This document shows, in pieces, positions 1-56,732 of a DNA stretch of 64,000 nt. The notes beneath the pieces were generated by a model. That model did no database searches. It saw nothing but the letters and a program-made list of their open reading frames with translations, and was not told where the DNA came from. The DNA comes from an uncultured Clostridium sp. GTDB lineage: Bacteria > Bacillota > Clostridia > TANB77 > CAG-508. The number at the start of each line of letters is the position of its first letter. Positions within the stretch are counted from its first letter, which is position 1. The DNA lies in contig CAZDPV010000002.1 in the NCBI GenBank assembly GCA_964507565.1, forward strand, positions 24,879 through 88,878, written 5' to 3'. Both the position numbers and the translations under genes were made by a program.

Positions 1-3000
1 AAAAAAGAAATAAACGGATATGCAGAAATAGAATATGAAGATAATGAAATAGTAAATATCTATAATCAAGAAATAACTTATCAAACAATATCTTCAAAAG
101 CATATTTAGAAATTCCAAATGGAATAAAAATAAATTTATCAAATAAAGTTATTAGTCAAAACGGCGAAAATAAAATGAGTTTAAATAATATGGTAATAGA
201 TTCAGAAGATAATGTTACAATAACTGATTTAGAAGAGCTTCAGAAAAAAGAAAATACGATATCTGAAAATTCAACTAATGAAAACAACACATCTTTAGGA
301 ACAGGAAGTGTTACTCAAGGTCCTACAACAGTAATAAATAACCAAACATCAACTTCTATAACAGCAGGGAATGTAGGAGATTCAAAAACAGACTCAGAAG
401 AAACGGTAGATGAAACTAAAACTGTAATTGCTCCAACATATAAAGTAACAAAATTTGAAACAACATCAACTGGAATAAAAGCAACAATTGCGGTAAATGA
501 TGAAGAATCACTACTAACATCAGATAGCAAAATTAAAGTAATAGATGGTGAAACAGGAAAGTTAGTTTATGAAAATACGGAAAGCTTAGGAGTATATAGC
601 ATAGATGTTGACATATCTACACTTTCTCCAAATACAGAGTACACATTAGAAGTTGAATCAAGCTATACTGTTGATTCAATAAGCTATACAAAGAATTTTG
701 TATACAAGGTATTCAAAACTTTACCCATTGGATTAGGAATTACAAAAGATGTTTATACTTCTGATAGCTTAGGAATAAATGTAGTTTTTGAAAGTGAATC
801 AGATGTTAAAGAAGTAGAGGTTGCACTACTTAACAATAAAGGTGAAACAATAAAAACTCAAAAGGTTTATAATAAAGGTAAGACTGAAAACACAAGCAAC
901 GTGGAATTTACACAATTAGAATCAAATACAGAATACACAGTAGAATTACTTAATGCAATATATAATGGACAAGTTATATCAAATGGCTTCGACATAACTA
1001 AAAATTGCAAAACACTAAAGGAAAAACCACAAATTAGTAATCCTGAATTTGAAATAGACAAAAGAAATGGCAAATTTAACCTGGATTTAAAAAACTCAAT
1101 TGACAAAGATAGTGGAATTCAGGAATATAGATTTGAAGTATATGATACAAGACAATCTGCTGCAAAAACACCAATAATGTCATTATCAACAAATGGAACA
1201 CAAACAAGCTTAAAGGTTGATAACGATAAAATATTTAGAAATGTAGCATATATTTTCAAAGTTATTGCAATATTCAATGATAATGAAAAAATCCATGAAT
1301 ACGAAAGCGAATTTAGTGATATTATGCAATTAGATGGAACTGAATTTCCAACAATATCATTCGAAAAGAAAGAGGTTACGTACGAAAGAATCGAAGGGAC
1401 AATAATAGTTGAAGACAAAGGAAACGCAATCAGCCTAAAAAATGGAAATAAATTTACCGTAATCTATAATGACTCGGTTGGAGGAAAAAATGAGTCATTT
1501 ACATCAGAGGGAAGTCTTAAAATTCCAGTATCAGTAAATAATTTAAGAGCAAACGAGACTTACAAATTTTCAGTATATACAACAGTAGATTTACAAGATG
1601 GCAATGATCCAATTAAAGAATGCTTTATAGGTTCAGTAATTGTAAAAACAGAATTACCTAAAAATCTAGTAGCAAATTTTAAAACTAATAAACAAAATAC
1701 AAAAAGCACTTTTGATGTAACGTTTCAACTAGCAAAGGAAAATCAAAGCCAAACTGATTTAGAATCACAGACTCTTACAGGAGTTACATTTAGTATTTAT
1801 CCAGGACAAACAACTGATGGAAAATTGCCAACTGGAACTCCAAAGCGAACTGTTAAGATTGTGGATAGCGATGTTTCAGCATATTCAAGCGAAATAAAAA
1901 CAAATTATTATGACCAAAGTAAATCAATTAATCCAACGTTTTTTGGGTCACAAAACAATGATTTTAAGGACAAATATTATACACTTGTTGTTTCAAAGGC
2001 TTACGACTATACAGATTATCAAAATGCCTTACCAATAATAAATAATGTTTACACAATTGAAACAAATGGATATATGCCTGACCTACCAGGGGACGTTAAT
2101 GATGCACTGCAAGTCAACGTAATTAGAAACAGAGATTCTAGTTCAATAAGAGAAGAATTGGATGCAAGCACAATTGTGGGATATACCGTAAAAGCAAGTT
2201 ATGATAATTCCGATTACTATGCAAAAAAAATAATATATAAAGCGTATAATGCAATATCAAAAGCTTTAATATCAACTAAAGAAGTGAGCATGGACAAAAC
2301 ATTAGAAATTCCTAGTGTAACATTTGATGTAAAAGATGGAATAGATTCAGCTAGTACTGATGATGAAAATCTAACAAGAGGAAATACTTATTACTTTACT
2401 TATGAAGCAGAACTTGACTTAAATGGCGATGGAGAAGCAGAAACTCATTATCCATATAATAGCAACGGACAAGCAGTAACACTTAAATCAAAAGATGTTA
2501 TTCCAGAAAAGCAAGAGGCAAAAATAGAAATGTTTCCAATAATATCAACAAAAAACACATATTCATTTGGAATTAAAATAATAGATATTGACAAATCAAT
2601 AAATACAAATACAGCTAGTGCAAAGATAGATGATAAATTAGTAGATACAGAAGTATTAGACAAGACATCAAATCAATATGGACAAATAACATTTAAAAAC
2701 CTGTCAAAAGGAAATTTGGAAATATATATAACACAAAAAACAATCAATACTGAAGACTCAAAAAAAATATATTTAATTTATCAATACTTTGAAGGAATAA
2801 AAAGCATTAGTGATATTAAGTTTAAAAAGAGCTTAGAATCAAACAAATTACTTATAACATTGATAGATTCTGGAGAACAAATCAACAATATAATAGCGGT
2901 AAAAGTTACTCTTGAATCAACAGATGGAACGGTAAAAATAGAAAAAGATATGTTAAAACCAACAAATAATATTATAAGCATAAATTTAAATGACATTAGT

Positions 3001-4755
3001 GATTTACTCAATAAAGAAACTAAAGTATCAGTAAAAGCTTACTATGATAGTGGAATAACTGGATATAATTTAGAACAAAATCACTTTGTAACATATCAAA
3101 AACCATATCTGTCTGGGGAAACCGTATACTATTATAAGATAGATGGTAAAAAACAATTTGTTGATACTCCAGATATACTAGGAAATATATATATAAGTAC
3201 AAGAACAGAAAACTCTTTGCAAATAGTTAATGCTATGACAACAAGTTTAACAACAACAATAACACTTGATATTACAAAAAACGGATTCACATATAATGGA
3301 AATGTTATTCTACCAAAACAAGTAAATGAGCAGGAAATCGTTTCAGAGGATGGCGATAACATTATTAAATTCGATGTAATAATAACAGGAATAACTCTAA
3401 AAGATAATAAGGGAAATCTAACAATATCATCAGAGCTAGACAACGTTAGTTTTGAAGCATCTCTTTTAACAAAAGAATCTGTTAAGGATGATTTGATATA
3501 TATAGAGATATATCAAACTGACGAAAATGGAAAAACACAATACTTAACTAATACTATTTCAAAGTTAACAAGTGATTTTAACAGTAAAATTACAATAGAT
3601 GGTTTAAAACCAAAAACATATTATTTTCTTAAATTTAGAGCAAATTTTGACACATCAGATGGTGTTTCATCAAAATACTTATATGATATAGATTACGAGG
3701 TAGAGGGGAAGCAATATTATTTTTCAACGCTTGCAAATGTTGGAATAACAAATATAAGTGTAAAATATAATCCAGTTGATTATGATAACAAAACAATTGA
3801 CATAACATACAACCTTGATAAAATAATGGGATATAAGAAGATAGCATATAAGATAGAAAAATATAATGAAGTTACAAAATTATATGAAGAAACAGGAATA
3901 AAAATATCAAACGATGTACTATTTAAAAATGAAATGACTAAAAAAATAGTATGCAACCCAACTGGAGCAGATACAAAAATTATATTCGGAAAAAAATACA
4001 AAATTATAATTGCACCATTAACAGAATATACATATAATGGAACTACTACAACCTTAGATCTAGGCACAAAAGAATATGAATTTGAGCTTCAAGAACTTTC
4101 TAATCCAATTATTGCTTTAAAAGGTTCAAGATCGGGAGAAAGTAGTGCATATTTTAAAGTAACAATATATGATAATGATAAAATAATAGTTGGTGGAAAT
4201 TATTCTGTACAGATTTTTGAAAATGGTTCTATAGATATTACACCAGAGGAGTACGTAAATCAAAAATATTCAATAAATACATTTAATAAAACATTCTCTA
4301 TCTCAAACGTTAATAAAACAAGTAAATATAAAATACTAATAAAATGCAAAATAGATAAAAAGAACAATGGAAATGAAATAACAGACTTTGAAAAAAGTTA
4401 TGAATTACCATCTGTAAATGAATATGGAATTTCAGTAGGAAACGTTTCAACAGCAACAAACTTGAATGGTGGAATTTATAAAATTGATTTAATTTTTAAT
4501 AGTTCATACAAACTAAACGAAATAGACATGGTGAAATATTCAATTTATAATGTAAGCGGATATTCGCAAAGTAATGAGGAAAACTTTATACCAACTGAAA
4601 TAAATTCAGAAGATGGTGGTTTATACTATAAATTTACATTAAATAATAATATGAATGATTGTGATCAGGGAACTTATTATATTGAATTACAATTTTATAA
4701 AGATGGAAATTTAGTTGACGAAACAACAGTTGAACATGTTTATTTAAAAGAATAA
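1..4755 (+). CDS. Giant surface/secreted protein built from tandem FN3/Ig-like beta-sandwich modules (5' end lies outside the window)
   Basis: Frame 1 is open from nt 1, with no stop before the ATG at 175 used by the ORF track, so the gene is truncated by the window edge. It has at least 11 modules of about 90-110 aa, each with an FN3-like strand signature (SPNTEYTLEVES, ESNTEYTVELLN, RANETYKFSVYT, KPKTYYFLKFRA, KTSKYKILIKC). There is no C-terminal TM or LPXTG. The stop is TAA at 4753-4755. Confidence 0.8.
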   Translation, partial: KKEINGYAEIEYEDNEIVNIYNQEITYQTISSKAYLEIPNGIKINLSNKVISQNGENKMSLNNMVIDSEDNVTITDLEELQKKENTISENSTNENNTSLGTGSVTQGPTTVINNQTSTSITAGNVGDSKTDSEETVDETKTVIAPTYKVTKFETTSTGIKATIAVNDEESLLTSDSKIKVIDGETGKLVYENTESLGVYSIDVDISTLSPNTEYTLEVESSYTVDSISYTKNFVYKVFKTLPIGLGITKDVYTSDSLGINVVFESESDVKEVEVALLNNKGETIKTQKVYNKGKTENTSNVEFTQLESNTEYTVELLNAIYNGQVISNGFDITKNCKTLKEKPQISNPEFEIDKRNGKFNLDLKNSIDKDSGIQEYRFEVYDTRQSAAKTPIMSLSTNGTQTSLKVDNDKIFRNVAYIFKVIAIFNDNEKIHEYESEFSDIMQLDGTEFPTISFEKKEVTYERIEGTIIVEDKGNAISLKNGNKFTVIYNDSVGGKNESFTSEGSLKIPVSVNNLRANETYKFSVYTTVDLQDGNDPIKECFIGSVIVKTELPKNLVANFKTNKQNTKSTFDVTFQLAKENQSQTDLESQTLTGVTFSIYPGQTTDGKLPTGTPKRTVKIVDSDVSAYSSEIKTNYYDQSKSINPTFFGSQNNDFKDKYYTLVVSKAYDYTDYQNALPIINNVYTIETNGYMPDLPGDVNDALQVNVIRNRDSSSIREELDASTIVGYTVKASYDNSDYYAKKIIYKAYNAISKALISTKEVSMDKTLEIPSVTFDVKDGIDSASTDDENLTRGNTYYFTYEAELDLNGDGEAETHYPYNSNGQAVTLKSKDVIPEKQEAKIEMFPIISTKNTYSFGIKIIDIDKSINTNTASAKIDDKLVDTEVLDKTSNQYGQITFKNLSKGNLEIYITQKTINTEDSKKIYLIYQYFEGIKSISDIKFKKSLESNKLLITLIDSGEQINNIIAVKVTLESTDGTVKIEKDMLKPTNNIISINLNDISDLLNKETKVSVKAYYDSGITGYNLEQNHFVTYQKPYLSGETVYYYKIDGKKQFVDTPDILGNIYISTRTENSLQIVNAMTTSLTTTITLDITKNGFTYNGNVILPKQVNEQEIVSEDGDNIIKFDVIITGITLKDNKGNLTISSELDNVSFEASLLTKESVKDDLIYIEIYQTDENGKTQYLTNTISKLTSDFNSKITIDGLKPKTYYFLKFRANFDTSDGVSSKYLYDIDYEVEGKQYYFSTLANVGITNISVKYNPVDYDNKTIDITYNLDKIMGYKKIAYKIEKYNEVTKLYEETGIKISNDVLFKNEMTKKIVCNPTGADTKIIFGKKYKIIIAPLTEYTYNGTTTTLDLGTKEYEFELQELSNPIIALKGSRSGESSAYFKVTIYDNDKIIVGGNYSVQIFENGSIDITPEEYVNQKYSINTFNKTFSISNVNKTSKYKILIKCKIDKKNNGNEITDFEKSYELPSVNEYGISVGNVSTATNLNGGIYKIDLIFNSSYKLNEIDMVKYSIYNVSGYSQSNEENFIPTEINSEDGGLYYKFTLNNNMNDCDQGTYYIELQFYKDGNLVDETTVEHVYLKE

Positions 4756-4775: not shown

Positions 4776-6445
<1,670 letters not shown>

Positions 6446-6492
6446 ATAGATAAAATATAAAAAGTCTAATGCTATTTTACAGGAGAAAAAAT

Positions 6493-7320
6493 ATGATAAA
6501 ACTAATTATACCAGCAATAATAATGGAATTCTTAATGTTTGGATTTTCTATATATATTTTTGATAATCTCTCAAAAAGGATAAATAACAGAGTAAAAAAA
6601 TATTTTATAGACAAACTTCAAGATTATAATTATTTAATTGAAGAAAAAGCTAAAGAGCTTGAAAATTTGAGAAATTTGGTAGATAATGAAAATAATAAAA
6701 TAAAAAAACTTCAAGAAACGCCAGAAAGCACATTCTCAAAAACTATAGAGAGCAAGTTAAAGAAAATGAAGAAATTTAAAGAGGGAAAAATCAAACTAGT
6801 AGAAGAAGAAGATATAATTTATGATATACCAACTCCTGCATATAGGGAAGAGTCATTCTTTAAAAATTATAAAGAGCTAAAAAAGAACTTTAACGTGGAT
6901 ACACAAAATGTATTAGAGAAATTTGTTAAGGAACATAAGAATACAAAACAAGAAGATGAAGCATATAAAATTCTTACAGAATTCAGGTCTAAATTTAATC
7001 AAAATACAATTTATGATTGTTTAACATTAAATTCTAATAATCAATACAATTTAATGAAAGAAGTAATGTCCTCAAAAGAAAAAAACACAATTAACTTTGA
7101 GGAAAAATTTATGCAGGACAAGAAATTTACAATATTAAAATTATTAAATTATGTTGACGAGCTGATAAAAAAATACGATCCAACAATATATGTATATGTC
7201 GGATCAGACAGTGTTGATTATAATTATATTGAAAAGAACATCAAGACATATTTTTATAAAAACATGTCCGAAGGAATAATTATAAACTATAAAGGAAAAA
7301 TGTATGACTATAGTATATAG
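6493..7320 (+). CDS. Peripheral-stalk-like protein: b-subunit-like N-terminal TM plus coiled coil, with a delta/OSCP-like C-terminal end (candidate b-delta fusion)
   Basis: I prefer the ATG at 6493, 7 nt after AGGAG (6481-6485); the ORF track starts at 6469 in the same frame. It has one N-terminal TM (IIPAIIMEFLMFGFSIYIF) followed by a long K/E-rich helix. The C-terminus EGIIINYKGKMYDYSI resembles by eye the OSCP/delta C-terminal pattern (GG-x-x-[VI]-x-x-G-x-x-[IV]-x-D-x-S). It occupies the atpF/atpH position between c and alpha. Confidence 0.55.
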   Translation: MIKLIIPAIIMEFLMFGFSIYIFDNLSKRINNRVKKYFIDKLQDYNYLIEEKAKELENLRNLVDNENNKIKKLQETPESTFSKTIESKLKKMKKFKEGKIKLVEEEDIIYDIPTPAYREESFFKNYKELKKNFNVDTQNVLEKFVKEHKNTKQEDEAYKILTEFRSKFNQNTIYDCLTLNSNNQYNLMKEVMSSKEKNTINFEEKFMQDKKFTILKLLNYVDELIKKYDPTIYVYVGSDSVDYNYIEKNIKTYFYKNMSEGIIINYKGKMYDYSI

Positions 7321-7346: not shown

Positions 7347-8685
7347 ATGGGTACACATATTGAGGATTTATTAAATAAAAAAATAGAGCAAATTAAGACA
7401 GAAGAAAATGTTTTTGATTCTGGAAATGTTACAAAAATAAAAGACTATATAATTGAAGTTTCCGGATTGGAAAACGTTAGGTTTTTTGAAAAAGTAATAA
7501 TCCAAGGTAAGGGAATGGGATATGTAAATCAAATAAATGAAAATTCCGTAATAATTGCATTGGTAAAGCAATATGCCCCAATCCAAATTGGAGATATTGT
7601 AAATTCAACAGGAGAATTATTTAAAGCAATATTTGCAAAAGAAGCAATGGGAAGAATAACAGATTTATTTGGCGTCGATTTATTAACAGGAAGAGCTTTT
7701 GAAAACTTTGAATATATAAATATAGAAAACAAAACTACTCCAATAATGGACAGGCGAGAAGTAAACAGACCTCTTAAAACTGGAATATCAGGAATAGACT
7801 TAATATACCCAATAGGAAAAGGACAAAGACAGTTAATAATAGGCGATAAAAAAACTGGAAAAACGCAAATAGCTCTTGACATAATTGCAAATCAAGCAAA
7901 TGTAAGGCGAGAACAAGGAGACAATATAGTTTGCATATACATAGCGGTAGGAAAAACAAAAAAAGAGATTAAGAATATTTATAATGAACTACTTAGAAGA
8001 AATGCATTATCATATACAATGATTTGTGCTGCAACTAATGATGATAAGCCACCTGTATTAAGTCTTATTCCTTATGTAGGATTATCTATTGCAGAAGAAT
8101 ATATGAAAATGAAAAAGGATGTAATTGTAATAATAGATGATTTAAAAAAACATGCACAAGCATATAGAGAGATTAGCTTAATATCGAATAAAACACCAGG
8201 AAGAGACGCATATCCATCTGATATTTTCTATACGCATGCTCGTTTGTTAGAGAAAGGTTGCCAATATAAAGACGGAGGTTCAATTACAATTTTACCTATA
8301 ATGGAAACAAAAGGTGGAGATATAACAGATTATATATCAACCAATATTATTTCAATAACTGATGGACAGCTTGTATTATCAGAAAAAAACTTTAGCGCAG
8401 GATTTAAACCGGCAATTGACTATGGAGTATCAGTATCTAGATTAGGTGGAGCAGTTCAAGAGGAAAGTGTAAAGAAATTAGGAGCAACAGTAAGAAGAAA
8501 ATTCTTAAGCTACTTGGAAATGAAAGAAGTATATGAGCTTGCGAATATGGATGAAATGAGTCCAGAATTAAGACAAAAAATGAAAGAAGGAGAAGCTATA
8601 CAAGAAGCATTAAAACAAGATAAATTTTCTCCTCTGTCAAATGCGGAAATAATTGATAAATTTAATATGTTAGGTGAGGATGCAA

Positions 8686-8696
<11 letters not shown>
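7347..8696 (+). CDS. atpA: F1 ATPase alpha-subunit-like protein (449 aa, short C-terminal domain)
   Basis: Contains RPLKTGISGIDLIYPIGKGQRQLIIGDKKTGKT (alpha Walker A, GD-x-x-TGKT). Also has ITILPIMETKGGDITDYISTNIISITDGQ and FKPAIDYGVSVSRLGG, the region containing the alpha arginine finger. The N-terminal beta-barrel is present. It is about 50 aa shorter than typical alpha subunits of about 500 aa. Confidence 0.9.
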
Positions 8697-10865: not shown

Positions 10866-11159
<294 letters not shown>

Positions 11160-11174
11160 AAGAGGAGAGAATTT

Positions 11175-11744
11175 ATGATACAAACAATAATGTATAATGT
11201 TAGTAAAAGTGCAATTCCAATGTTAATATACTTAGGAATAATAGTATTTACTGGATTCCTCATAAATTTCTCAACAAAAAAATTTGATATTCATAAAAAA
11301 ACAGTTATGTTTGGAGGAATGTTAGTTAAACTTCATAGAAGGCAAATAATCTCAATAACTGCAGTTATGATAAGAACATTTCTAATAATATATGCATCTA
11401 TAAACTTTAAAGAAAATTTGGTATTGTACTTTACGATGATTATTATGGCAGATATAGTTTATATTTTTATGAATCCCAAAAAAATAGTATTTGAAATTAT
11501 AAATACTTCTGCACAGGGAATTTTAATATATATAATAAGTCTACTAAGCACATATCGAGTTGAAATTAGTGATGAACTATACGTAAAACTAATGCAAACA
11601 TTGCTTATTATTTTTATAATTGTGTATGCAATATACTTTTTATTTAAAAATTTTGAAGAAATAATATCAAAAAAATATAAAATAACAAAAAGAGAGAAAA
11701 AAGACCAAGAATTGAAGGGAGAATTAAATGAAAAAAATAGCTAA
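11175..11744 (+). CDS. Polytopic (about 5 TM) membrane protein of unknown family; speculative minimal stator or a-subunit substitute
   Basis: GAGGAG RBS. Hydrophobic segments include AIPMLIYLGIIVFTGFLINF, IISITAVMIRTFLIIYASI, LVLYFTMIIMADIVYIFM, AQGILIYIISLLSTY and LMQTLLIIFIIVYAIYFLF. There is a buried Arg in TM2 and an Asp in TM3. IRTFLIIYAS loosely resembles the a-subunit LRLFGNMYAG helix. The C-terminal tail is K/E-rich. Confidence 0.6.
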   Translation: MIQTIMYNVSKSAIPMLIYLGIIVFTGFLINFSTKKFDIHKKTVMFGGMLVKLHRRQIISITAVMIRTFLIIYASINFKENLVLYFTMIIMADIVYIFMNPKKIVFEIINTSAQGILIYIISLLSTYRVEISDELYVKLMQTLLIIFIIVYAIYFLFKNFEEIISKKYKITKREKKDQELKGELNEKNS

Positions 11745-12459
11745 TAAAACATCACAAAATGCTTTAATAAAAGATATTGTCATAAAAATAGTATTAGTAT
11801 TATTACTTCTAGATGTAATATTTATTGCAATATACTATATCAAACAGCTAAATACAACAGAAGTAGAAAATCATAGCTTCTATCAATACTTAGGTGGTCA
11901 AAAGCAAAGTTATGCAGGAAGTATTAAAATAAGCAAAAACGGTGATATAACAGAATTAAAATGTAACGATATTGAAATCGAATTAGACTCAACACCAGTG
12001 TATTATTCAGATATAGAAAATACCGCAATATTACCAGAACAAATGTCAATTATTTATCCAAAAGAAAATGGAAAAACATATAGAACAACAAGATTCTCTA
12101 TATGCTCAATAAAAGACAAATCTGTGTATATTGAAATGAGTAAAAGCGAAAAATTAGTGCAAAATGCAATTCTATATGATGGAGATAATTTGTATTTTTT
12201 TATAGAGCAAACAAAGCTAATGATTGGTAATAAAGAGTATGATATTTCACCATTATCTTATGTATATGCAAAATACAATGAATATGTAGAAATTTATGAT
12301 AAGAAAAGTGATACATTTCAAGTGGTAGAATGTGCAAAAAAGAATGTAACAGCAAGCAATGGCTCATATATAATAGACTTAAACACAGGCAGTTTAAAAA
12401 ATGGAGAAAAAGAACAGCTATTACTTAAAAAGTTTAATTCATTAGAAATTTTAAAATAG
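11728..12459 (+). CDS. Single-pass membrane protein, unknown function
   Basis: ATG follows AAGGGAG and overlaps the previous gene by 17 nt. The N-terminal TM is IVIKIVLVLLLLDVIFIAIYYI, followed by an extracytoplasmic domain of about 200 aa. Confidence 0.6.
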   Translation: MKKIANKTSQNALIKDIVIKIVLVLLLLDVIFIAIYYIKQLNTTEVENHSFYQYLGGQKQSYAGSIKISKNGDITELKCNDIEIELDSTPVYYSDIENTAILPEQMSIIYPKENGKTYRTTRFSICSIKDKSVYIEMSKSEKLVQNAILYDGDNLYFFIEQTKLMIGNKEYDISPLSYVYAKYNEYVEIYDKKSDTFQVVECAKKNVTASNGSYIIDLNTGSLKNGEKEQLLLKKFNSLEILK

Positions 12460-12505: not shown

Positions 12506-15500
12506 ATGAATAAAAATGAAATAAAAGATAAACCAAAATTACATAAAAAAGGTAAAATAGCAAATCTAATAAGAAGCAATATACCAATGTTTCTAATAGT
12601 ATCAATTGGGCTACTAATAATATTATTAGTGGCACTTTATTATATATTTATGCACTTTGCTCCAGTATATGTAATCGAAAAAAGTGGATATGCAGTAAAG
12701 GATAAATTAATATATCAAGGATTACAGACATCAAATTTTAGTAGTGCAGAAAAACGAGTTAGCCTATTAGAAATTTCAGAAGAAGATACTCTATACAAAA
12801 AAATAAACAGTTATTATATTGGTGGAAATAGTAAAAAAGCTATAAACTTAAATTATCCAATATATTTAGAAGATTCAGCAATGCTAAATTTAAGTAAAGA
12901 AATGAATTTGATCACAAATTCTTTTGAAGAGGTAGGAGGATATCCAAATTTTACAATAATAGATGGAAAGATGTATAATGAAAAAGATTTAACAAGAGCA
13001 GATAGCAATGAATACATATTTCTTAAAAATAAAGAGAATTTGTTTGTAAATATTAAAGAAATATATATAAAGACTTCTACAAATGAATATAAAATACCAA
13101 TAAATAGTATTATAAATTTTAACAAAGAATTTGTTAGTTATTATAAATTACAAGACAAAGATAACTTAGAATATAGTGTAATACAAGATATAGACTTAAG
13201 TAGTATAATTACAATAAATAATGAAAGTGATAATTATGAAAATATATTAAAGAAACTTAAAATTATACAAGAAGAAAAGAAACAGGATGTAATTGTAAAT
13301 GAAATAGAAGAACCTGTTAAAAATGAAACACCCAAAAATGAAATAACGGAAAATAAAGAAGAAGAAAAAACGGACGATGAAGAAAAAAAATATATTGCTC
13401 CAGAAGTAAAATGTACAGACTTTACTGCAAATGTTTATACTGCAAAGACGAATTTATATATAAGTGACCCAAGCGGAACGATTCAAAAAGCAGTAGAATT
13501 TACAATATACAAAGATGGTAAGGTATATCAAAGAGCTCAAACTTTAGTAGGAGGAAACATTTTAATAAGTGGACTAATGCCAGATTCAAAATATTCAATA
13601 ACAGGAGAGTACACATACAAAAAAGAATCAGGAGAAAAAGTAATAAAAACATTTTATGAAGGTACGTTTAATACCAATAGATTAGAAACACTAGAAACTA
13701 TAAATTTGGAATTTGAGAATGGAGAAATATTTCCAACAAAGATTGAAATAAAAGATTTAAAAATAAATAATGATTTATATAATGACGAAGTTTTATATGG
13801 AATATCAAAAATAGTATTGGATACAGGAAAATCTAAATATAATTTAAGAGCTTCACAAATAAAAGAACTACTAAATGGAAATAAAATAACATATCAAACC
13901 GACCAAAATATAACAAGTAATAGTAATATAAAATATAAATTCCATATATATGATAAATTTGAAAATGAATTATCAGTCTCAAATAGTGAAGGGGAAACTA
14001 TAACTTCAAAAAGAGCTCCAACTTTAGTATTAAATGCAAAAAGTCAAAATATAACAGAAGTAAATGTAGGAATTAAAGTTAATAACAAGGATAACGTTAT
14101 AATAGAAAACTATAAATATGCTATATACGATGGGGAAGGGAAAGAAGTAGAAAGCCAAAACTTAAAATCATTACCAAGCGAAATTAAGATAAGAGATCTA
14201 GACCCTAATAAATTCTATGTAATAAAAATATTTGGAGATTATGATTTGGAAAACAATCAGGGAAAAACATATAATGTTGAACTGGGGGAAGCAAAATTTA
14301 CGACGTTACCAATATCTTCACTAGGATATGTATACATTGATGATAACTTAAAAGATATAAAAAGTAACCAAACAACAATTTCTATAAAAATAAATACTGA
14401 AAAAACTGATACTAGATTGGTAGAAATATTATCACAATTTAATATAAAAATAAAATCAAACAAAGATAATAAAGATACTCAAGACTATAACTTATCAAAC
14501 GAAGACCTTCTCAAAATAAAGCAGGGAAATGAATTTGAATACATATTCCAAAATCTAAATTCTAACACTAAATATTCTATTGAAGTAGAAACGAGGGCAA
14601 AACAAGGAGCTTCAACGGAAAAAGTAGGTGTAAATTTCGAGATAACGGACTTTATTACACTTAAGGAATCTGCTAGTGTACAAATTAAAAATCAATTTGT
14701 TACAGGAGAAATAATAGATTTTGATGCAAAAATAGTAGATAAAGATGAAGCTGTTTTAAATAATTCTGTACGTATGGAATTAAGGGACGAAATGGATAAG
14801 CTACTATCAATAGAAGATATGAAAACAAATGAAGAATATAAAAGAGAGACATTCAATAAATTGAGTAGTGGAAAAACATATAAAATATTATTTTACGCTG
14901 ATGAGTATAATGAGGGAAGTAAAGATGATACATACAAATCAAACTATCTTCTTAAAAAAATACAAGTTGTTACTGAGGAGGGGATAAGTGGAAATTTAAG
15001 ACTAAGTGAACTTAATAAAAAAGAAAACGGAAAAAATCTAATTGATATGGCTTCAGAAGTAAAATGGTATGTATATCCAAATTTTGACACAGGAGACTGG
15101 TATGGAAAAGAGTATAATGAAGTAACAGAAACATTGTCAATTGGAGGACATGGAAACAGTAGAAGATGTGTATATGACTTAACAGATTATTCAGGACAAA
15201 CTGTAACGATGTCTTTTAAGGCAAAGCGTATTACTAAGAACTCAAGCACTCTATATATTCAAAATGCAAGAACAGATAAAAATAGAACAATAGTTAGTGA
15301 CATAAATGAAACAGAATGGAAAAGTTATTCATATACCATAAAACTTGATGAAAGTGGATACCTTGGCTTTTATGTACAAGGTGGTGATGGAGTTCAAATA
15401 AAAGAATTACAGGTTGAACTGGGATCTAAGCAAACTCCATATCAAAAATATAAATATAATATGAGAACTAGATTACAAGTAAATTTAATTGACAAAAGAA

Positions 15501-18500
15501 ATGAAATAGAGTCGAACGAATATTTCATAAAAGAATATAAAAACAATGAGCTTATTGAAACTAAAAACTTTCAAGAAATAGATGAGAGCAACATAGTAAA
15601 AGATGTAATAAAAGAATTTTGGGTAGATGAAGAAGGAGAATACAAGTTTCAGTTAGTAATAAAGATAAGAAACAGAGAATATATACTAGATACACAAGAA
15701 ATTAAAACTGAAAAAGGAAAAGAAATAAAAGGAATTTATCAATATTCGGATTTTAAGTTGATCCAGCCAAATGGGAACTATACAGTATTTTGTGATTTAG
15801 ATTTTACAGTAGAAAGTAAACAATCATGTTCTTTTGGATATACATGGGACGAAAGATTTTCTTTTAATGGAAGCATAGATTTTAACGGACACAAAATTAT
15901 AAAAGATGCGTATGGAAATAATAGAAGTTGGCCTATATTCCCTAGAATAGGAAAAAACGGATATCTAAAAAATATAGTTATGGATGTAAGCCTAAGAAAT
16001 AATGTAGAAGTAAGAGAATTCTATGGATTATTTTATGTAAACTCTGGAACAATAGAAAATCTAGAAGTTAATTTATTAGAAAGTACAAAATATGGAAATA
16101 TACAAACTCATCTAATAGGTTTAACAAACTATGGAACAATAAATAAATTTGTTATAAATTCAAAGGTACCATACTATGGAAATTGTAGAGTAACACTGGG
16201 ATTGTATAACAATTATGGGACAATTAAAAATGGATACTTATATGGCAGTCCAATTGATGTATTTGGAGATATACCAGAAGAAATTGGATATAGATATGCA
16301 GCTGGACTGGTATTACAATCATATGGAAGTGGACAAATATCAAATGTTTATAGTTTAATAAATGTTAATGTGGAAGACCAAACTACTACTGGAAGAGAAA
16401 ATGTATCTAATATAGTAGAACATAATTACGCACACATAGATAATATTTACTCAGTAGGAACCGGAAATACAATTGAAATGTCACATGGACCATCAGTTGC
16501 ATATAATAATGGAAAAATAAATAATAACTATTACTTTGCAGATAAAGTATTTAATAACTCATATAATAATAAAACTACCAAACTTGCATTATTAGATGAA
16601 CAATTTCAAAATCAAATACTAAATAGTGAAGATGCATTTAATATAGATGATCTTATTTCAAGAGGATATTATCCACAAGTTGTTATGCCAGATTGTATGC
16701 CACGACAGGAATATATCAACCTACCTAAAGTAGATGATGCAGACTTACCAGATATAATTTCAACTAACATAATACAACAAGGCTCAGATACGGTAAAAGT
16801 TAGATTTAGTATAAATAATCCATCTGGAGAAAAAATTCAAAACATAAGTGTACAAAACCTACAAGTAAGAATAGAATCACAAAATTATGCAGATGGAAAA
16901 AGTGAAGTAATAGCAACACTACTAGAACCTACAAAGTATGTATCAACATATAATGTTCTAAGTATAACTACAAAAGGTGCATTCAATATACCATATACTA
17001 GAAAATATGCAAGCAATGAAAGAATAATAAATGTGGATTTATATAGGCAGATAAATTCTATATCAGATTGGAACAATATATCAAACCATACAGATGAAAA
17101 CTTTATGCTACTAACAGATTTAGATTTTAAAAATGAAGGAAGTTCTATATCAATAACTAAAACCTATTATGGAAAATTAGAAGGACAGGGTCACACCATT
17201 AAAAATATAAAGTCAAATAGAGGACTTCTTGCAACATTTACTGGACAAATAAATAATTTATTTATTGAAAATTATTATAATGAATCAGCATCAACAGACT
17301 ATACTGGAGTAATAGAATATTTAAATGGCGGAATAGTAAATAATGTACACATTAAAGGATTAGAGATAGACGTAAATCAAAAAAGAATAGGTGGAACAAT
17401 TACGTGTGGAGGCCTTGTTGGATATACTAATAGTGGCTCAGTAATAAAAAACAGCTCAATTGTAGATGCAACTATTATATCAAATGCAAAACTAGATAAT
17501 GCAAGATTTGGCGGATTAGTAGGATTATCAGACCAACTAGTAATAGATAACTGTTTTGCACAAAATGTAGATATTTCAGCTAATAAAAGTATTTATTATG
17601 AAGGAGTAGGAGGACTAATAGGAAGAGGAACTCCTTGTTACATAACTAATTGCTACTCGACAGGTAAAATTTTTTCAGATGGAGATAGATGTGGAGGAAT
17701 TATCGGAAACAGTAATACAAGCGGAACCCTAACAAATTGCTATAGCTTAGTAAATGTAGATAGTTATGGAGAATATATAGGAGGAATTATTGGATATAAT
17801 CTTACACCAACTTCATGCTTATCTATTGGAAATATTTATACTAGACAAGATACAAAAAACATATCTAGAACATCTGGATATCAAATAAGTAAAAAGATAA
17901 ACTATGCTTATGAGAATCAACTAATAAATGGATATATAAATGAAAATGAATTAGATTCAAATGTACTAAGTAGAGACGAAATATTTAAAAAATCCAATTA
18001 TTTAAGTGAGCTTAAATGGGATGATAATTACAATTATGATGGATTATCTAATTATATACTTCCAAAACTATATTACACAGATAAAAAAGAACTACTACCT
18101 AATCAAGAAGATAATACAATTTCAATAGACAGAGAAATAAAAGTAGAAGAGGTTCAAGCAGAGAAAACAGACGTTAATACTGTTGGTGTAAGAGTTGTAG
18201 TAAATAATCCAGGAAACAAACAAATTAAAAATGTAATAATTGATGACATGAATTCAATAATCTCAAAATCAATTTTTGATAATGGAAAAACTTATATAGA
18301 CTTAGTAACAACGCCTAAAAGATATTATGACAGCTATAAAATCTCAAGCATTGTATATGATGACAATGGAGAAGAAAAATCAAAAGAAACAGAAAATAGA
18401 ATTGATGTTAAATTTTATAAAGAAATATATAACTACAATGACTGGCAATCAATAGAAAAAGATACATTTCAAAATTATAAACTTATGAATGACATTGACT

Positions 18501-21500
18501 TTGAAGGAAAAAGTGAAGTAAATTATAATGTTACAATGGCTAGATTCGAAGCGGTAGGTGATAATAAAACATTAAAAAATATTACATTAGCAGAAATTGA
18601 GCAACAATCTGGACTAATAAACAAAATTTCCATAAATTTAGAAAATATAAATTTCGAAAATATTAACATTACATCTACTAAGTCTGGAAATGCAGTAGGA
18701 ATAATTAGAAAAGCAAGTGGAAATGTAACAAACATCAATTTTAAAGACATAACAATAACCGCAAAAAAAGTTTCTTATGTGGGATGCTTTGCTGTGGTAG
18801 ATTCCGTAACGAAAGATGTTGGACTAGAACACATTACATGCTATGGAATACACTACGTTGGTGGATATGCAGGTTCTGTCTCGAATTTAGGAAAAAATAT
18901 AAATGGAAACAACATCACGATTATTTCAACAGGAAATTATGTCGGTGGAATAGTTGGACTAAATGGTAATGGAATAGAGCCAAATCATTATAACATAAAT
19001 ATAAGTAATTCAAATGTTACAGGATATGATGTTGTTGGTGGACTTGCTGGACAATCTCCTAATATAATGGGTGCGAAAGCTACTTTTGTAACAGTAAATG
19101 GACATAGCAATGTTGGAGGAATGTATGGATATATATATGACTCTTGGGATGGATATAGCAATATTGTAACGGATTCAAATATAGCAGGTTCAGGTTCAAA
19201 TATTGGTGGATTAGCAGGACAATCAACAGACTGGTGGGGAGGAATTAGAACTGTTAAAAACAGTACTGTTACGGGTAAAAATTCAGGATCAAACAACGTG
19301 GGAGGAATCTTTGGATACTCAACAGGAGCATGTAATGCTATGAATACAATAGATGTAACTGTTACAACATTAGGAAGCAATGTAGGTGGAATTATAGGAA
19401 ACTGGAATAGATCGAATTCAACATCTGGATACTGGAGTACAGATAATGTAACGCTAACAGGATATTCAAATGTAGGAGGTTTGGTTGGTTATCATAAAGC
19501 AGGAAGAATAAATTATGCATATAGTAATGCAAAAGTAACAGCAACAGGGTATGCAGCAGGAGGAATATCTGGATATTTGGCCAATACTGGAATGACAGCA
19601 ATAACAAATGATACAGCAATAGTACAAGTTTATGTAGCTAAATCTACTGTAATTGCTCCAATAAATGCAGGAGGAATATTTGGAAAAGTTGAAACAGACT
19701 TTTATATGCCAGTATCTTTATATACTAAAATATTTGTAGAAGCCAACGTAAAATCAAATTATGACACGACATCTTCAATGATTGTGGGTTCAGACAAGAC
19801 AATGAATAGTCAATTATCAAAAATATACATCTACCAATACAGCAAGATAAATGAAAATTACATTACAAAATATAACGACAATATAGAAGCAAATAATTTC
19901 TTAAATGAAAGTAATTTAAAGCTAGCAAAAACATATTCTTCAACACTAGGATTTAATACAGGGGTATTTAATACGAATATGTTATCAAGTAATATTTATC
20001 CAACAATAAAATATGGTAGAGATGGAAATACAATGGAGCAAAGAGGAATTTCATTGCCAATGGATCCAGTAGACGTAGTTATAAATTTAGAAGAAATACA
20101 AACAATGGATTTGAAAGAAGATGAATATCCACTTATGGTAGCATCTAATTTCTTAATTAACTTAAATACTGAAAACGACCAAAAAGTGAATAACTTACCA
20201 ACGTATAGTGCATATCCAATAAGTGTAAATGAGTTTAATATAGATTTTAGTAAAATAGACGAAAATGCTTTCTTTGAATGCTATGTAAATGGTAGAAGTG
20301 CTGTAAAACAATATATAAAAAATAAAACATATACATTTAAATATGACTTTAAAACTAATATTGAAATCAATATAGGAAAAGATGATGTGGTAAAAACATT
20401 AACAATTATACCAAGTGATATAAATAAACGAACAAGTTTAAAGGGAGAAAGCATTGCATATATAAATGAAAATAAATTATATGTAAATAATGAGGAAAAA
20501 AGTGAACAATCTGTAAACTTATATGATTCCCAAGCTTTAACGAACAATGGAAAGATATACAACATATTAACTGGTGAGTATACAAATAGCAATGAAAAAA
20601 CAAATACTACAAGCATAGATGAAGAGAGCCAAAACAATAATGTTCAAAACACATTAGCATTAGAAGAAACTAAAGCGTTAGAAAAATACCAATATGATGG
20701 AAATAATATTGAAAGCTTTGGAACGTACAGCATAGTAAATGGCAATAGAAAGTCACAAATTTATATAGTAAAAAACAACAAGTTATCAGTGATAGATAGC
20801 TCATTAGATATCAAAATTTCAAACCAAGTAATTGATTTCTACAATGGAAAAGAATATCAATCAGTACTAAAAAAAGATGGAAAGATAAACAATTTAAAAG
20901 AAAGTCTAAAATATCCTAAAAATTTTAATAATAGTACAATAAAAGAAATAACAATGAATCAAGAAGAAGAAAGAAAAGAAGTAATGGTACTATATGAAAA
21001 CGGAAAGGTCATAGTATTCAATTACATGGATGGAAATGAAAAATACAATAATAATGTGAAAGAAGAAGTAAGTTTATTAGACTTTTTAAAAGAAAATTTG
21101 TTTAATGCAAATATGATATATGAAGACTTATCAGAAGAATATGAACAATGCAAACAAGTACAAGAAAAGCTAGAAGAAACTCCAATAAGTGAGCTAAACA
21201 TAAATTCGAGTTCAAATAATAGTTCATCTAATGCAACATCAAGTGGATCAAACAATAATAAAACAAATAAATACACTACAATGTACAATGCAACAAGCAA
21301 AAAATATGAAGTATATAATGAAAATGAACTATTAACAAGCAAAGAAGAGGTACCAGAATCAGAAACTACTAAGATTGAAAAAACAGAATTATTATCTAAA
21401 TATTATCTAAGTGGAATAAAAGAAAAATCAAATTCTAATAAAAATAATGGTACGGTTTGGATAATATCAACAATAATTGGAATTTTAATAATTCTCATAA

Positions 21501-21562
21501 TATTATACAAAGTAAACAACAGAAAAAGAATAGCAATTAAAAAAAATACAAATAAAAAATAA
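12506..21562 (+). CDS. Giant (3018 aa) envelope protein with TM helices at both termini, FN3-like repeats, a CBM-like jelly-roll and GLUG-motif beta-helix arrays
   Basis: CAGGAG RBS. N-terminal TM (IPMFLIVSIGLLIILLVALYYIF, about nt 12584-12652). FN3-like signatures include MPDSKYSITGEY, LDPNKFYVIKIFGDY, LNSNTKYSIEVETRA and SSGKTYKILFYA. A CBM-like segment spans about 15060-15450. F-x-G-x-(L/F)-x-G-x-G-H-x-I-x-N modules are present (FNGSIDFNGHKIIKD, YYGKLEGQGHTIKNI). About 10 consecutive x-V-G-G-(L/I)-x-G repeats span about 18850-19690. An S/N-rich linker precedes the C-terminal TM VWIISTIIGILIILIILY (21455-21508), which is followed by a basic tail. There is no LPXTG and no HEXXH. Confidence 0.85.
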   Translation: MNKNEIKDKPKLHKKGKIANLIRSNIPMFLIVSIGLLIILLVALYYIFMHFAPVYVIEKSGYAVKDKLIYQGLQTSNFSSAEKRVSLLEISEEDTLYKKINSYYIGGNSKKAINLNYPIYLEDSAMLNLSKEMNLITNSFEEVGGYPNFTIIDGKMYNEKDLTRADSNEYIFLKNKENLFVNIKEIYIKTSTNEYKIPINSIINFNKEFVSYYKLQDKDNLEYSVIQDIDLSSIITINNESDNYENILKKLKIIQEEKKQDVIVNEIEEPVKNETPKNEITENKEEEKTDDEEKKYIAPEVKCTDFTANVYTAKTNLYISDPSGTIQKAVEFTIYKDGKVYQRAQTLVGGNILISGLMPDSKYSITGEYTYKKESGEKVIKTFYEGTFNTNRLETLETINLEFENGEIFPTKIEIKDLKINNDLYNDEVLYGISKIVLDTGKSKYNLRASQIKELLNGNKITYQTDQNITSNSNIKYKFHIYDKFENELSVSNSEGETITSKRAPTLVLNAKSQNITEVNVGIKVNNKDNVIIENYKYAIYDGEGKEVESQNLKSLPSEIKIRDLDPNKFYVIKIFGDYDLENNQGKTYNVELGEAKFTTLPISSLGYVYIDDNLKDIKSNQTTISIKINTEKTDTRLVEILSQFNIKIKSNKDNKDTQDYNLSNEDLLKIKQGNEFEYIFQNLNSNTKYSIEVETRAKQGASTEKVGVNFEITDFITLKESASVQIKNQFVTGEIIDFDAKIVDKDEAVLNNSVRMELRDEMDKLLSIEDMKTNEEYKRETFNKLSSGKTYKILFYADEYNEGSKDDTYKSNYLLKKIQVVTEEGISGNLRLSELNKKENGKNLIDMASEVKWYVYPNFDTGDWYGKEYNEVTETLSIGGHGNSRRCVYDLTDYSGQTVTMSFKAKRITKNSSTLYIQNARTDKNRTIVSDINETEWKSYSYTIKLDESGYLGFYVQGGDGVQIKELQVELGSKQTPYQKYKYNMRTRLQVNLIDKRNEIESNEYFIKEYKNNELIETKNFQEIDESNIVKDVIKEFWVDEEGEYKFQLVIKIRNREYILDTQEIKTEKGKEIKGIYQYSDFKLIQPNGNYTVFCDLDFTVESKQSCSFGYTWDERFSFNGSIDFNGHKIIKDAYGNNRSWPIFPRIGKNGYLKNIVMDVSLRNNVEVREFYGLFYVNSGTIENLEVNLLESTKYGNIQTHLIGLTNYGTINKFVINSKVPYYGNCRVTLGLYNNYGTIKNGYLYGSPIDVFGDIPEEIGYRYAAGLVLQSYGSGQISNVYSLINVNVEDQTTTGRENVSNIVEHNYAHIDNIYSVGTGNTIEMSHGPSVAYNNGKINNNYYFADKVFNNSYNNKTTKLALLDEQFQNQILNSEDAFNIDDLISRGYYPQVVMPDCMPRQEYINLPKVDDADLPDIISTNIIQQGSDTVKVRFSINNPSGEKIQNISVQNLQVRIESQNYADGKSEVIATLLEPTKYVSTYNVLSITTKGAFNIPYTRKYASNERIINVDLYRQINSISDWNNISNHTDENFMLLTDLDFKNEGSSISITKTYYGKLEGQGHTIKNIKSNRGLLATFTGQINNLFIENYYNESASTDYTGVIEYLNGGIVNNVHIKGLEIDVNQKRIGGTITCGGLVGYTNSGSVIKNSSIVDATIISNAKLDNARFGGLVGLSDQLVIDNCFAQNVDISANKSIYYEGVGGLIGRGTPCYITNCYSTGKIFSDGDRCGGIIGNSNTSGTLTNCYSLVNVDSYGEYIGGIIGYNLTPTSCLSIGNIYTRQDTKNISRTSGYQISKKINYAYENQLINGYINENELDSNVLSRDEIFKKSNYLSELKWDDNYNYDGLSNYILPKLYYTDKKELLPNQEDNTISIDREIKVEEVQAEKTDVNTVGVRVVVNNPGNKQIKNVIIDDMNSIISKSIFDNGKTYIDLVTTPKRYYDSYKISSIVYDDNGEEKSKETENRIDVKFYKEIYNYNDWQSIEKDTFQNYKLMNDIDFEGKSEVNYNVTMARFEAVGDNKTLKNITLAEIEQQSGLINKISINLENINFENINITSTKSGNAVGIIRKASGNVTNINFKDITITAKKVSYVGCFAVVDSVTKDVGLEHITCYGIHYVGGYAGSVSNLGKNINGNNITIISTGNYVGGIVGLNGNGIEPNHYNINISNSNVTGYDVVGGLAGQSPNIMGAKATFVTVNGHSNVGGMYGYIYDSWDGYSNIVTDSNIAGSGSNIGGLAGQSTDWWGGIRTVKNSTVTGKNSGSNNVGGIFGYSTGACNAMNTIDVTVTTLGSNVGGIIGNWNRSNSTSGYWSTDNVTLTGYSNVGGLVGYHKAGRINYAYSNAKVTATGYAAGGISGYLANTGMTAITNDTAIVQVYVAKSTVIAPINAGGIFGKVETDFYMPVSLYTKIFVEANVKSNYDTTSSMIVGSDKTMNSQLSKIYIYQYSKINENYITKYNDNIEANNFLNESNLKLAKTYSSTLGFNTGVFNTNMLSSNIYPTIKYGRDGNTMEQRGISLPMDPVDVVINLEEIQTMDLKEDEYPLMVASNFLINLNTENDQKVNNLPTYSAYPISVNEFNIDFSKIDENAFFECYVNGRSAVKQYIKNKTYTFKYDFKTNIEINIGKDDVVKTLTIIPSDINKRTSLKGESIAYINENKLYVNNEEKSEQSVNLYDSQALTNNGKIYNILTGEYTNSNEKTNTTSIDEESQNNNVQNTLALEETKALEKYQYDGNNIESFGTYSIVNGNRKSQIYIVKNNKLSVIDSSLDIKISNQVIDFYNGKEYQSVLKKDGKINNLKESLKYPKNFNNSTIKEITMNQEEERKEVMVLYENGKVIVFNYMDGNEKYNNNVKEEVSLLDFLKENLFNANMIYEDLSEEYEQCKQVQEKLEETPISELNINSSSNNSSSNATSSGSNNNKTNKYTTMYNATSKKYEVYNENELLTSKEEVPESETTKIEKTELLSKYYLSGIKEKSNSNKNNGTVWIISTIIGILIILIILYKVNNRKRIAIKKNTNKK

Positions 21563-48026: not shown

Positions 48027-48062
48027 AATGTAAATATTTTATATTTGTAAAGGATGATTAAA

Positions 48063-49635: not shown

Positions 49636-49674
49636 ATTTATAATTTATTCAAAGTTATAAATTAAGGAGGAACA

Positions 49675-50874: not shown

Positions 50875-50980
50875 CAAAAAAATGAAATTAAGGAGGCACA
50901 GTATGTTATTTTTGATGATATAAAATATCAACTAAAATAAAAGCCATATACTTGTGCCTTATTTAATGGAAAGGGGTAAG

Positions 50981-52189: not shown

Positions 52190-52249
52190 AAGTGGTTTAT
52201 GGGTAAAGACCAATAAAAACCTAAATTAGTAATGTAAGGAAAAATTAAA

Positions 52250-56699: not shown

Positions 56700-56732
56700 A
56701 TATAATAGATAATAGATTGGTTGGAGGAAAAA

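Follow-up and report, generated by a model that had tools for sequence, protein, structure and literature searches.

Within a 64-kb stretch of DNA (the window), a gene cluster for an F1-like ATPase encodes a 189-aa membrane protein with five helices (hereafter 5TM) that, judged by its sequence, founds a new protein family unrelated to subunit a of ATP synthase. The ATPase of this cluster seems to have lost ion coupling, since the carboxylate of its c-like subunit is gone and no a-subunit accompanies it. Our tentative proposal, to which we give slightly less than an even chance, is that 5TM is a lineage-specific subunit of this non-canonical ATPase that conducts no ions and serves in the membrane as scaffold or stator; its membership of the complex, its ring-side position and its stator role are what we infer. 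The earlier note on this DNA, which had reported that subunit a was missing and had suggested an a-like character for 5TM, is thus supported in part: the absence stood and the a-like reading did not.

The F1-like ATPase gene cluster

The 5TM gene starts with ATG, runs for 189 codons and lies in a compact operon (Table 1). As had been described, it encodes a 189-aa protein with about five helices, confirmed by reading of the ORF and by AlphaFold2, and its start follows the stop of the 97-aa ORF by exactly 15 nt. The stop region overlaps the start of the ORF for the 243-aa protein by 17 nt, an overlap implying that the two genes are probably translationally coupled; overlap or tight spacing between 5TM and the corresponding ~245-aa gene is seen again in relatives. 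The two peptides quoted in the earlier note are present exactly as given, namely IRTFLIIYAS (residues 66-75), which places an Arg (R67) in TM2, and IIMADIVYIF (residues 89-98), which places an Asp (D93) in TM3.

Table 1 Coordinates of the gene cluster in the window and of features within the 5TM gene.
Feature	Position	Strand	Basis or remark
Giant repeat protein, at least 1526 aa, sub-threshold FN3-like matches	175..4755	+	1754-aa gene call in relative L001
468-aa bitopic protein, weakly FN3-like extracellular part, directly 5' of the c-like gene	4776..6182	+	fn3 E = 0.059
c-like subunit, 82 aa	6197..6445	+	PF00137 E = 4.8e-8, above threshold
b-like candidate peripheral stalk, 283 aa	6469..7320	+	Architecture, without profile match
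F1 alpha-like, 449 aa	7347..8696	+	PF00006 E = 5.5e-71; atpA models 400-430 bits, under curated cut-offs
F1 gamma-like, 267 aa	8674..9477	+	PF00231 E = 1.3e-27
F1 beta-like, 452 aa	9470..10828	+	TIGR01039 476.9 bits, exceeding the cut-off of 462.85
97-aa ORF at the epsilon position, in every cluster	10866..11159	+	Conserved synteny
Shine-Dalgarno-like AAGAGGAGAG, containing GGAG, 5 nt 5' of the 5TM ATG	11160..11169	+	Sequence read directly
5TM protein, 189 aa, five helices, founder of an uncharacterised family	11175..11744	+	ORF and translation
R67 codon, mid-TM2; family R 53%, K 23%, else Q/Y/N	11373..11375	+	Family alignment
D93 codon, TM3; acidic (about 12% D/E) in a subclade only, elsewhere S/T/G	11451..11453	+	Family alignment
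TM4 and its outer end, polar stripe E107, N110, Q114, position 122, Y127, E130	11484..11564	+	Family conservation
TM5, strongest conserved helical face: M140, L143/L144, F147, Y151, Y154, K158	11583..11648	+	Conservation moment
243-aa bitopic protein, N-in TM helix and ~200-aa extracellular domain	11728..12459	+	Translation
Giant 3018-aa protein, TM helices at N- and C-terminus, GLUG motifs, sub-threshold FN3	12506..21562	+	Glug E = 2.5e-8

The translation of the beta-like gene contains a Walker A motif (GGAGVGKT), GERSREG and a DELSEQD loop. The 283-aa b-like protein has an N-terminal TM helix (N-out) followed by a charged helical region, its conserved C-terminal domain closes with YDYSI, and we label it a putative b or b-delta stalk from its position and architecture. 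The epsilon assignment that the 97-aa ORF had been given is weakly verified: no match to this ORF was found among Pfam, NCBIfam and PDB profiles or by hhalign, and the name 'epsilon' is positional only. When the small post-beta ORF, the b-like protein and the 243-aa protein were compared with PDB profiles the best E value was about 0.1, and when hhalign set the same three families against individual E. coli sequences (b, delta, epsilon, gamma and c) the probabilities stayed at or below 2.8%. The description of the upstream ORFs as FN3 proteins is likewise weakly verified: fn3 matches exist but lie below the Pfam threshold (E of 0.059, 3.5e-4 and 1.2e-4). The only polytopic membrane proteins of the cluster are 5TM and c; the b-like, 243-aa, 468-aa and giant proteins carry terminal TM helices only.

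The rest of the window holds chromosomal housekeeping genes (ThrRS, SpoIVA, nusA-infB-rbfA-truB, FtsEX with M23 peptidases, tRNAs and a class A PBP), and no further ATPase genes were found in its 64 kb outside the cluster. The GC content is about 27% and the genetic code is standard. A non-standard code of the Mollicutes type, which the low GC content had suggested, was rejected because ORFs of 1526 and 3018 codons are open in table 11 and SpoIVA is present.

Absence of subunit a and of the c-ring carboxylate

Scans with Pfam and NCBIfam models did not find PF00119 in the cluster ORFs or in the other large ORFs of the window. We also searched with an HMM that represents 11 a-subunits of wide phylogenetic spread (E. 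coli, Neisseria, Paenibacillus, Enterococcus, Fusobacterium, Rubrobacter, Subdoligranulum, Paracoccus, Acaryochloris, Cereibacter and Legionella). The homologues of E. coli AtpB were at least 79% identical and too close for a profile, and ten diverse atpB loci were taken instead by tblastn on plasmids and chromids; the Cereibacter and Legionella genes came from operons with an N-ATPase-like gene order. Run with --max on the six-frame translations of the 64-kb window and 26 related loci, this HMM returned only noise at E ≥ 0.13, nearly all of it antisense. In a leave-one-out control a Clostridia a-subunit was recovered at E = 1.7e-46. The reported lack of atpB is thereby upheld, with nothing a-like in the window or the 26 related loci, the stretches of DNA to which this statement applies.

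The c-like subunit was aligned with the c subunits of E. coli, Enterococcus and N-ATPases as references. At the position of E. coli cD61 there is Ala or Thr in all 15 clusters aligned (Ala in the window), which bears out the previous description of a c-ring without a carboxylate. The GxGxGxG motif, the RNPE loop and the C-terminal NPL motif are nearly invariant across the same 15 clusters, and by homology we assume that the c-like protein forms a rotating ring.

Comparison of 5TM with subunit a

The idea that 5TM is a highly reduced but true homologue of subunit a, with R67 acting on the c-ring in the manner of aR210, had rested on the Arg inside TM2 and on a short echo of the a-subunit sequence LRLFGNMYAG; we now regard it as barely credible. 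The window protein has no match to PF00119 at E ≤ 1, and none of 127 family members has one at E ≤ 10. A profile search against all PDB sequences gave 0 matches at E ≤ 10. Aligned by hhalign with the 11 a-subunits, the 5TM family profile reached a probability of 0.27%, over 21 columns of TM1 only, leaving the Arg helix untouched, so that the profile similarity implied by an a-like reading was not found.

The residues around the Arg are no closer. In the 11 a-subunits the signature is R in 11/11, G at +3 in 10/11, N at +4 in 11/11 and G at +8 in 10/11, corresponding to R210, G213, N214 and G218 of subunit a, with +2 and +6 variable. The echo thus shares residues (F at +2 and Y at +6) that vary in a-subunits and misses those that do not: in the 5TM family +3 is F or L, +4 is I, V or L and never Asn, and +8 is A, L or V. 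A basic residue does recur at position 67, but it is semi-conserved only (R in 67, K in 29, Q in 9 and others in 22 of 127 members; R or K in 76%), with the Arg replaced in 47% of members and by Lys in 23%; the expectation of a conserved Arg therefore held in part. That of a conserved Asp failed, position 93 being D in 12 of 129 members (about 10%) and otherwise S, T or G. Where position 93 is acidic, position 67 is always basic (15/15, vs 81/112 for the remainder; Fisher p = 0.02, uncorrected for phylogeny), and we read R67 and D93 as a probable local pair within the protein, in the subclade of the window.

The model of the fold, described below, points the same way. TM2 and TM3 are 18-22 residues long and are not the long tilted hairpins of an a-subunit, and Foldseek with the 5TM model gave no match below E = 2, with a TM-score of 0.19 to a bacterial a-subunit. 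A transfer arginine would also find no partner in this cluster, since the c-like protein lacks the carboxylate. On the hhalign, residue signature and Foldseek results we reject homology of 5TM with subunit a.

Size, relatives and gene context of the 5TM family

A direct search with 5TM returned only eight relatives, at 39-45% identity. By profile search of 1.84 billion representative proteins (clustered at 50% identity) the family grew to 183 representatives at E ≤ 1e-3, most of them 165-200 aa long and aligned end to end; shorter matches appear fragmentary. When the 127-member alignment was searched against a set of 5.8 billion proteins, 10 proteins were among the matches listed, two of them new (P0297, P0298). 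No Pfam or NCBIfam model represents the family, and the 127 members scanned singly at E ≤ 10 yielded no recurrent family. Two of the 127 members matched V_ATPase_I (best E 0.0043), roughly the number expected by chance (127 x 0.0043 = 0.5), and these matches were dismissed; those to HemY_N, DUF2070 and OAD_gamma arise from a TM helix followed by a Lys-rich tail. The window protein has the features by which we define the family: a length of ~165-200 aa, five helices, an N-out/C-in orientation, the TM5 stripe L144/F147/Y151/Y154 and the conserved synteny.

Every member with a readable gene context lies 3' of beta and the small ORF and 5' of a ~245-aa bitopic protein. The complete cluster reads giant surface protein, ~470-690-aa bitopic protein, c-like, b-like, alpha, gamma, beta, small ORF, 5TM, ~245-aa bitopic protein and giant protein, and giant surface proteins stand on both sides of every full cluster. 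This 11-gene order was found in eleven loci from MAGs of uncultured Clostridia or Clostridium (taxonomy of MAG contigs is given here as deposited), one of them on a closed chromosome of 1.70 Mb (OZ006978.1), and in two metagenomic contigs of 49-50% GC (L030 and L037). In L036, a further contig (8.5 kb, 59% GC) with the deposited label of a Coriobacteriales MAG, the genes from c-like through the ~245-aa protein stand in this order; its length leaves no room for the giants on either side, and its c-like gene is called with a shorter N-terminus, at 66 aa. The DNA carrying these clusters ranges from 28 to 59% GC.

Between the window and L030, the most distant complete cluster, identity is 72% for c-like, 66% for beta, 56% for alpha and 45% for gamma, and then 35% for the small post-beta ORF, 27% for both the 468-aa and the 243-aa proteins, 24% for 5TM and 21% for the b-like protein.

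Fold, topology and conserved positions of 5TM

AlphaFold2 with the 127-sequence alignment modelled 5TM at a pLDDT of 93.6 and a pTM of 0.84; an earlier run with 7 sequences had been mediocre (pLDDT 70). The modelled helices span residues 2-35, 41-51, 55-76, 82-99, 101-130 and 135-188, of which 41-51 is short and interfacial and sits in the first cytoplasmic loop, and TM5 runs on as a Lys/Glu-rich charged cytoplasmic helix to residue 188. A Kyte-Doolittle scan found four strongly hydrophobic spans, with TM4 (104-126) more polar and the least hydrophobic. Across the family the count of Lys and Arg is 5.0 in loop 1, 1.6 in loop 3 and 6.7 in the C-terminal tail, against at most 0.6 each in the N-terminus, loop 2 and loop 4, and from these counts an N-out/C-in topology is predicted.

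There is no invariant residue in the family. The most conserved positions are Y127 and F147 (>90%), followed by G48, Y151, Y154 and L144, and conservation is concentrated on one face of TM5, in the cytoplasmic interfacial helix (G48, L50, L53) and at the outer end of TM4 (Y127, E130). The conservation moment is 1.82 for TM5 and at most 0.44 for the other TM helices. This pattern seems to exceed the needs of simple core packing. Most likely R67 and D93 join E107/N110 and Y151/Y154 in a polar cluster within the bundle, in the membrane's cytoplasmic half, and R67 would then not be a proton-transfer Arg.

The polar face of TM4 raises the question of an ion or solute pathway. In such a reading the TM4 stripe and R/K67 would line a small conduit and the complex would be another kind of pump, with the c-ring as rotor only. 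A semi-conserved stripe does run along the whole of TM4 (E/D107, N110, Q114, N122, Y127, E/D130), and a basic residue in TM2 and S, T or D in TM3 lie at similar depth. However, none of the stripe positions is invariant: 130 is E or D in 79% and Y127 exceeds 90%, but Gln at 114 is found in only 28% and Asn at 122 in 45%. Neither family scans nor the fold search matched 5TM to channel, transporter or secretion families or folds, and no mechanism would link rotation of a ring without carboxylates to gating. We consider a pathway of this kind quite improbable.

Y127 and E130, an aromatic and an acidic residue conserved where TM4 reaches the outer face, could instead point outwards to the surface proteins. 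Together with the 243-aa protein, 5TM might serve as an anchor, receptor or export helper for the giants and make no contact with the c-ring; the overlap with the 243-aa gene and the giant double-anchored protein that follows in every full cluster would agree with this. Yet most of the conserved features are cytoplasmic (G48/L50/L53, E107/N110, Y151/Y154/K158 and the juxtamembrane tail), the 5TM gene immediately adjoins the beta and small-ORF genes, and the transporter and secretion families gave no match. Such a service to the surface proteins strikes us as unlikely, if still worth weighing.

Proposed role of 5TM

Judged by Walker A, a DELSEED-like loop and the RNPE loop, both F1 and c appear functional and of canonical type, so that a membrane anchor for the peripheral stalk is to be expected. 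Because the F1 part and the c loop are canonical-looking, gamma and the small ORF product very probably engage the c-ring. A stalk needs a membrane partner by the ring, and 5TM, as the only polytopic candidate, is the candidate for that place. It is this position as the sole polytopic protein besides c, along with the coupling to the next bitopic protein, that leads us to a stator or scaffold. The 'otherwise novel membrane stator' that the earlier note had offered as its second option is plausible as the most economical role for 5TM.

We envisage a complex that would keep alpha, beta, gamma and the c-ring, with 5TM forming a compact up-down helical bundle beside the ring. As the polytopic core of the membrane stator, 5TM would dock two TM helices, the only one of the 283-aa b-like stalk and that of the 243-aa protein, and the ATP-driven movement of gamma and the c-ring would either be referenced to the cluster's extracellular proteins or be transmitted to them. 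A more specific version of this scheme, which we hold to be doubtful, makes 5TM the membrane stator of a rotary machine that runs on ATP without moving ions. The c-ring would then be a pure transmembrane rotor or shaft bearing, 5TM and the b-like stator would provide the reference, and the bitopic proteins and the giant FN3/GLUG proteins at the surface would receive torque or cyclic strain. Walled bacteria, of at least two lineages by deposited MAG labels, would in that case possess a counterpart of the mycoplasma gliding and MIB-MIP motors.

Strict synteny, a tight operon and a confident autonomous fold all speak for the stator or scaffold reading of 5TM, for which the lineage-specific membrane proteins of the mycoplasma F1-like X0 ATPases, discussed below, offer a precedent. 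Its constant presence, its coupling to the 243-aa protein, conservation on one face and at the interface, and an evolutionary rate as fast as that of the b-like protein would fit a stoichiometric structural subunit, and a divergence rate like that of the b-like and bitopic proteins would fit a structural and not a catalytic one. Against a stator, the fast evolution and the lack of invariant residues may equally fit an accessory or assembly factor, and the synteny of 5TM is as tight to the downstream 243-aa and giant proteins as it is to the ATPase.

The assembly factor deserves separate consideration. As an analogue of AtpI/UncI, 5TM would be a chaperone of the c-like ring or of the complex and would stay outside the mature machine. 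F- and N-type operons often include genes for small hydrophobic accessory proteins, the accessory genes of N-ATPase operons lie directly 3' of atpC (annotation of L024 and L029), and a fast-evolving protein without an invariant residue would suit such a part. On the other hand, hhalign against E. coli AtpI, subunit I of Cereibacter and Acaryochloris, and Legionella AtpZ/AtpI gave probabilities of at most 0.3%, and PF03899, PF09527 and PF12966 are not among the families most often matched by the 127 members. Genes of the AtpI type are often dispensable and patchy, whereas the 5TM gene is present in every cluster examined. A structural part in fixed stoichiometry is also suggested by the long cytoplasmic helix, which is conserved, and by the coupling to a bitopic protein. 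We therefore regard a chaperone function as distinctly unlikely and keep to the stator or scaffold as our working proposal.

Significance and comparison with known systems

To our knowledge, in every rotary ATPase characterised so far the c-ring is coupled to ion flow via an a-type subunit. In the clusters studied here F1 looks catalytically intact and the c-ring is highly conserved, and both seem to be under strong selection despite the loss of the carboxylate and of subunit a, a view based on the 72% (c) and 66% (beta) identity retained across DNA of 28% to 49% GC, and an orphan five-helix protein is always found at the place where a stator is needed. Since beta scores above the cut-off by which NCBI rules name it atpD, these clusters are likely to be mistaken for incomplete ATP synthase operons. 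If 5TM is indeed the stator, the cluster would specify an ATP-driven mechanical device across the membrane in gut Clostridia and relatives (it apparently occurs beyond the Clostridia), and would offer a tractable system for a c-ring that works without ions. The 'F1-like X0' concept, so far confined to mycoplasmas, would be widened.

5TM resembles subunit a (AtpB, PF00119) in being polytopic, in sharing an operon with c, alpha, gamma and beta, in its mid-TM basic residue and in being the only candidate for a membrane-embedded partner of both the ring and the peripheral stalk. It differs in lacking the R-x-x-G-N...G signature, in an Arg that is not invariant, and in showing no sequence, profile or specific fold similarity; its gene follows the epsilon position, whereas that of subunit a precedes c, and its partner c carries no carboxylate, which makes ion transfer impossible.

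With AtpI/UncI, AtpZ, AtpQ and AtpR, 5TM shares small size, hydrophobicity, poor conservation and co-transcription with ATPase genes, and accessories of the AtpI type directly follow the epsilon gene in N-ATPase operons as 5TM follows the small ORF. These proteins have 2-4 TM helices in roughly 90-130 aa, whereas 5TM is larger, with five TM helices and a long cytoplasmic helix.

The nearest systems in concept are the F1-like X0 ATPases of mycoplasmas (Type 2 and Type 3), in which orphan lineage-specific membrane proteins replace the Fo partners of an F1-like alpha/beta/gamma/epsilon module and the ATPase is tied to a surface system, either the gliding machinery (legs) or MIB-MIP (PMC3369863, PMC12994834). 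The mycoplasma X0 clusters have seven genes, including those for a 12-TM protein and a protein with two C-terminal TM helices (PMC3369863, PMC12994834). The present cluster is like them in its F1-like alpha, beta and gamma, its lack of subunit a, its orphan membrane proteins and its linkage to surface proteins. Only alpha and beta match the MSC_0618/0619 and MMOB1660/1670 models, all below the cut-offs, and apart from models for alpha and beta no NCBIfam model matched the cluster. A search of full-text literature returned no description of such a cluster outside the mycoplasmas. Unlike the mycoplasma clusters, which have neither, the cluster described here retains a c subunit and a b-like stalk. 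Its genes run in another order than theirs (c, b-like, alpha, gamma, beta, small ORF, 5TM), and its hosts, deposited as Clostridia and Coriobacteriales MAGs, are walled bacteria, spore formers among them, that use the standard code.

Conservation and spread of the cluster

The gene order from the c-like subunit to the bitopic protein of about 245 aa that follows the five-helix membrane protein (5TM) is identical across DNA of widely differing composition, with a GC content of 28% in the window, 49-50% in the related loci L030 and L037, both of which carry the full 11-gene cluster, and 59% in L036, deposited as a Coriobacteriales MAG. Going by the deposited MAG labels, this order is found in more than one phylum, which, together with the differing GC content, suggests that the module is either old or horizontally mobile.

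The ATPase genes are flanked by genes for giant proteins. The 3018-aa downstream protein has a TM helix at each terminus and contains GLUG motifs (E=2.5e-8); its FN3 matches fell below threshold. Among relatives, lengths of over 4000 aa occur, and some give weak collagen-repeat matches. On the near-identical metagenomic contig L001 (1-3581), the gene call for the upstream giant gives 1754 aa, as against 1526 aa for the window ORF, which begins at 175. The discrepancy would mean either that the gene really starts, in another reading, before the first base of the window, or that the gene calls differ.

Elsewhere in the window, the FtsE-FtsX genes and their neighbours form a compact cell-wall remodelling block. 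Two further ORFs, of 732 and 399 aa, sit amid housekeeping genes and had no Pfam match at E<=1e-4.

Features of the cluster and of the surrounding DNA (window positions)
Feature	Position	Description
Upstream giant	175-4755	1526 aa
c-like subunit	6197-6445	
b-like protein	6469-7320	283 aa
Alpha-like subunit	7347-8696	
'Epsilon' ORF	10866-11159	97 aa
5TM protein	11175-11744	189 aa
Downstream giant	12506-21562	3018 aa
ORF	25113-27311	732 aa
Cell-wall block	48054-53449	FtsE-FtsX pair, then two PcsB-like coiled-coil/M23 peptidase paralogues and an S41 protease resembling CtpB
ORF	56721-57920	399 aa

Individual proteins of the cluster

The alpha-like subunit scored below the atpA cut-offs, whereas beta scored above that for atpD. 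The alpha-like subunit lacks most of its C-terminal domain, because its match is confined to positions 13-436 of the 507-position model; canonical alpha is longer by about 55-60 residues. The b-like protein has a TM helix at its N terminus and a charged helical region, and its C-terminal domain, which is strongly conserved, ends in YDYSI. It is possibly a b-delta fusion analogue, but it matched no known family.

The ORF named 'epsilon' by position is kept in every cluster (85-147 aa in relatives), with a 210-aa ORF occupying its place in the variant cluster L035. Comparison with Pfam, NCBIfam, PDB profiles and hhalign targets gave no match for it, and a 14-residue segment recalls the epsilon beta-sandwich only loosely. 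The cytoplasmic tail of the 5TM protein varies in length, since the 280-aa orthologue P0006 (L005, 10001-10843) bears a Lys/Glu-rich C-terminal extension of about 100 residues.

The c-like subunit was compared across 15 aligned clusters (the window and loci from L005-L017, L030, L036 and L037). With 72-86% identity it is better conserved than any other protein in the cluster, despite loss of the ion-binding carboxylate, the position of which is Ala or Thr in all 15. The RNPETK loop is invariant among the aligned clusters, and the C-terminal end carries an [FY]NPL motif. A similar ending, ANPF/RNPL, is seen in the c subunits of the operons used for comparison, those of Cereibacter, Acaryochloris and Legionella.
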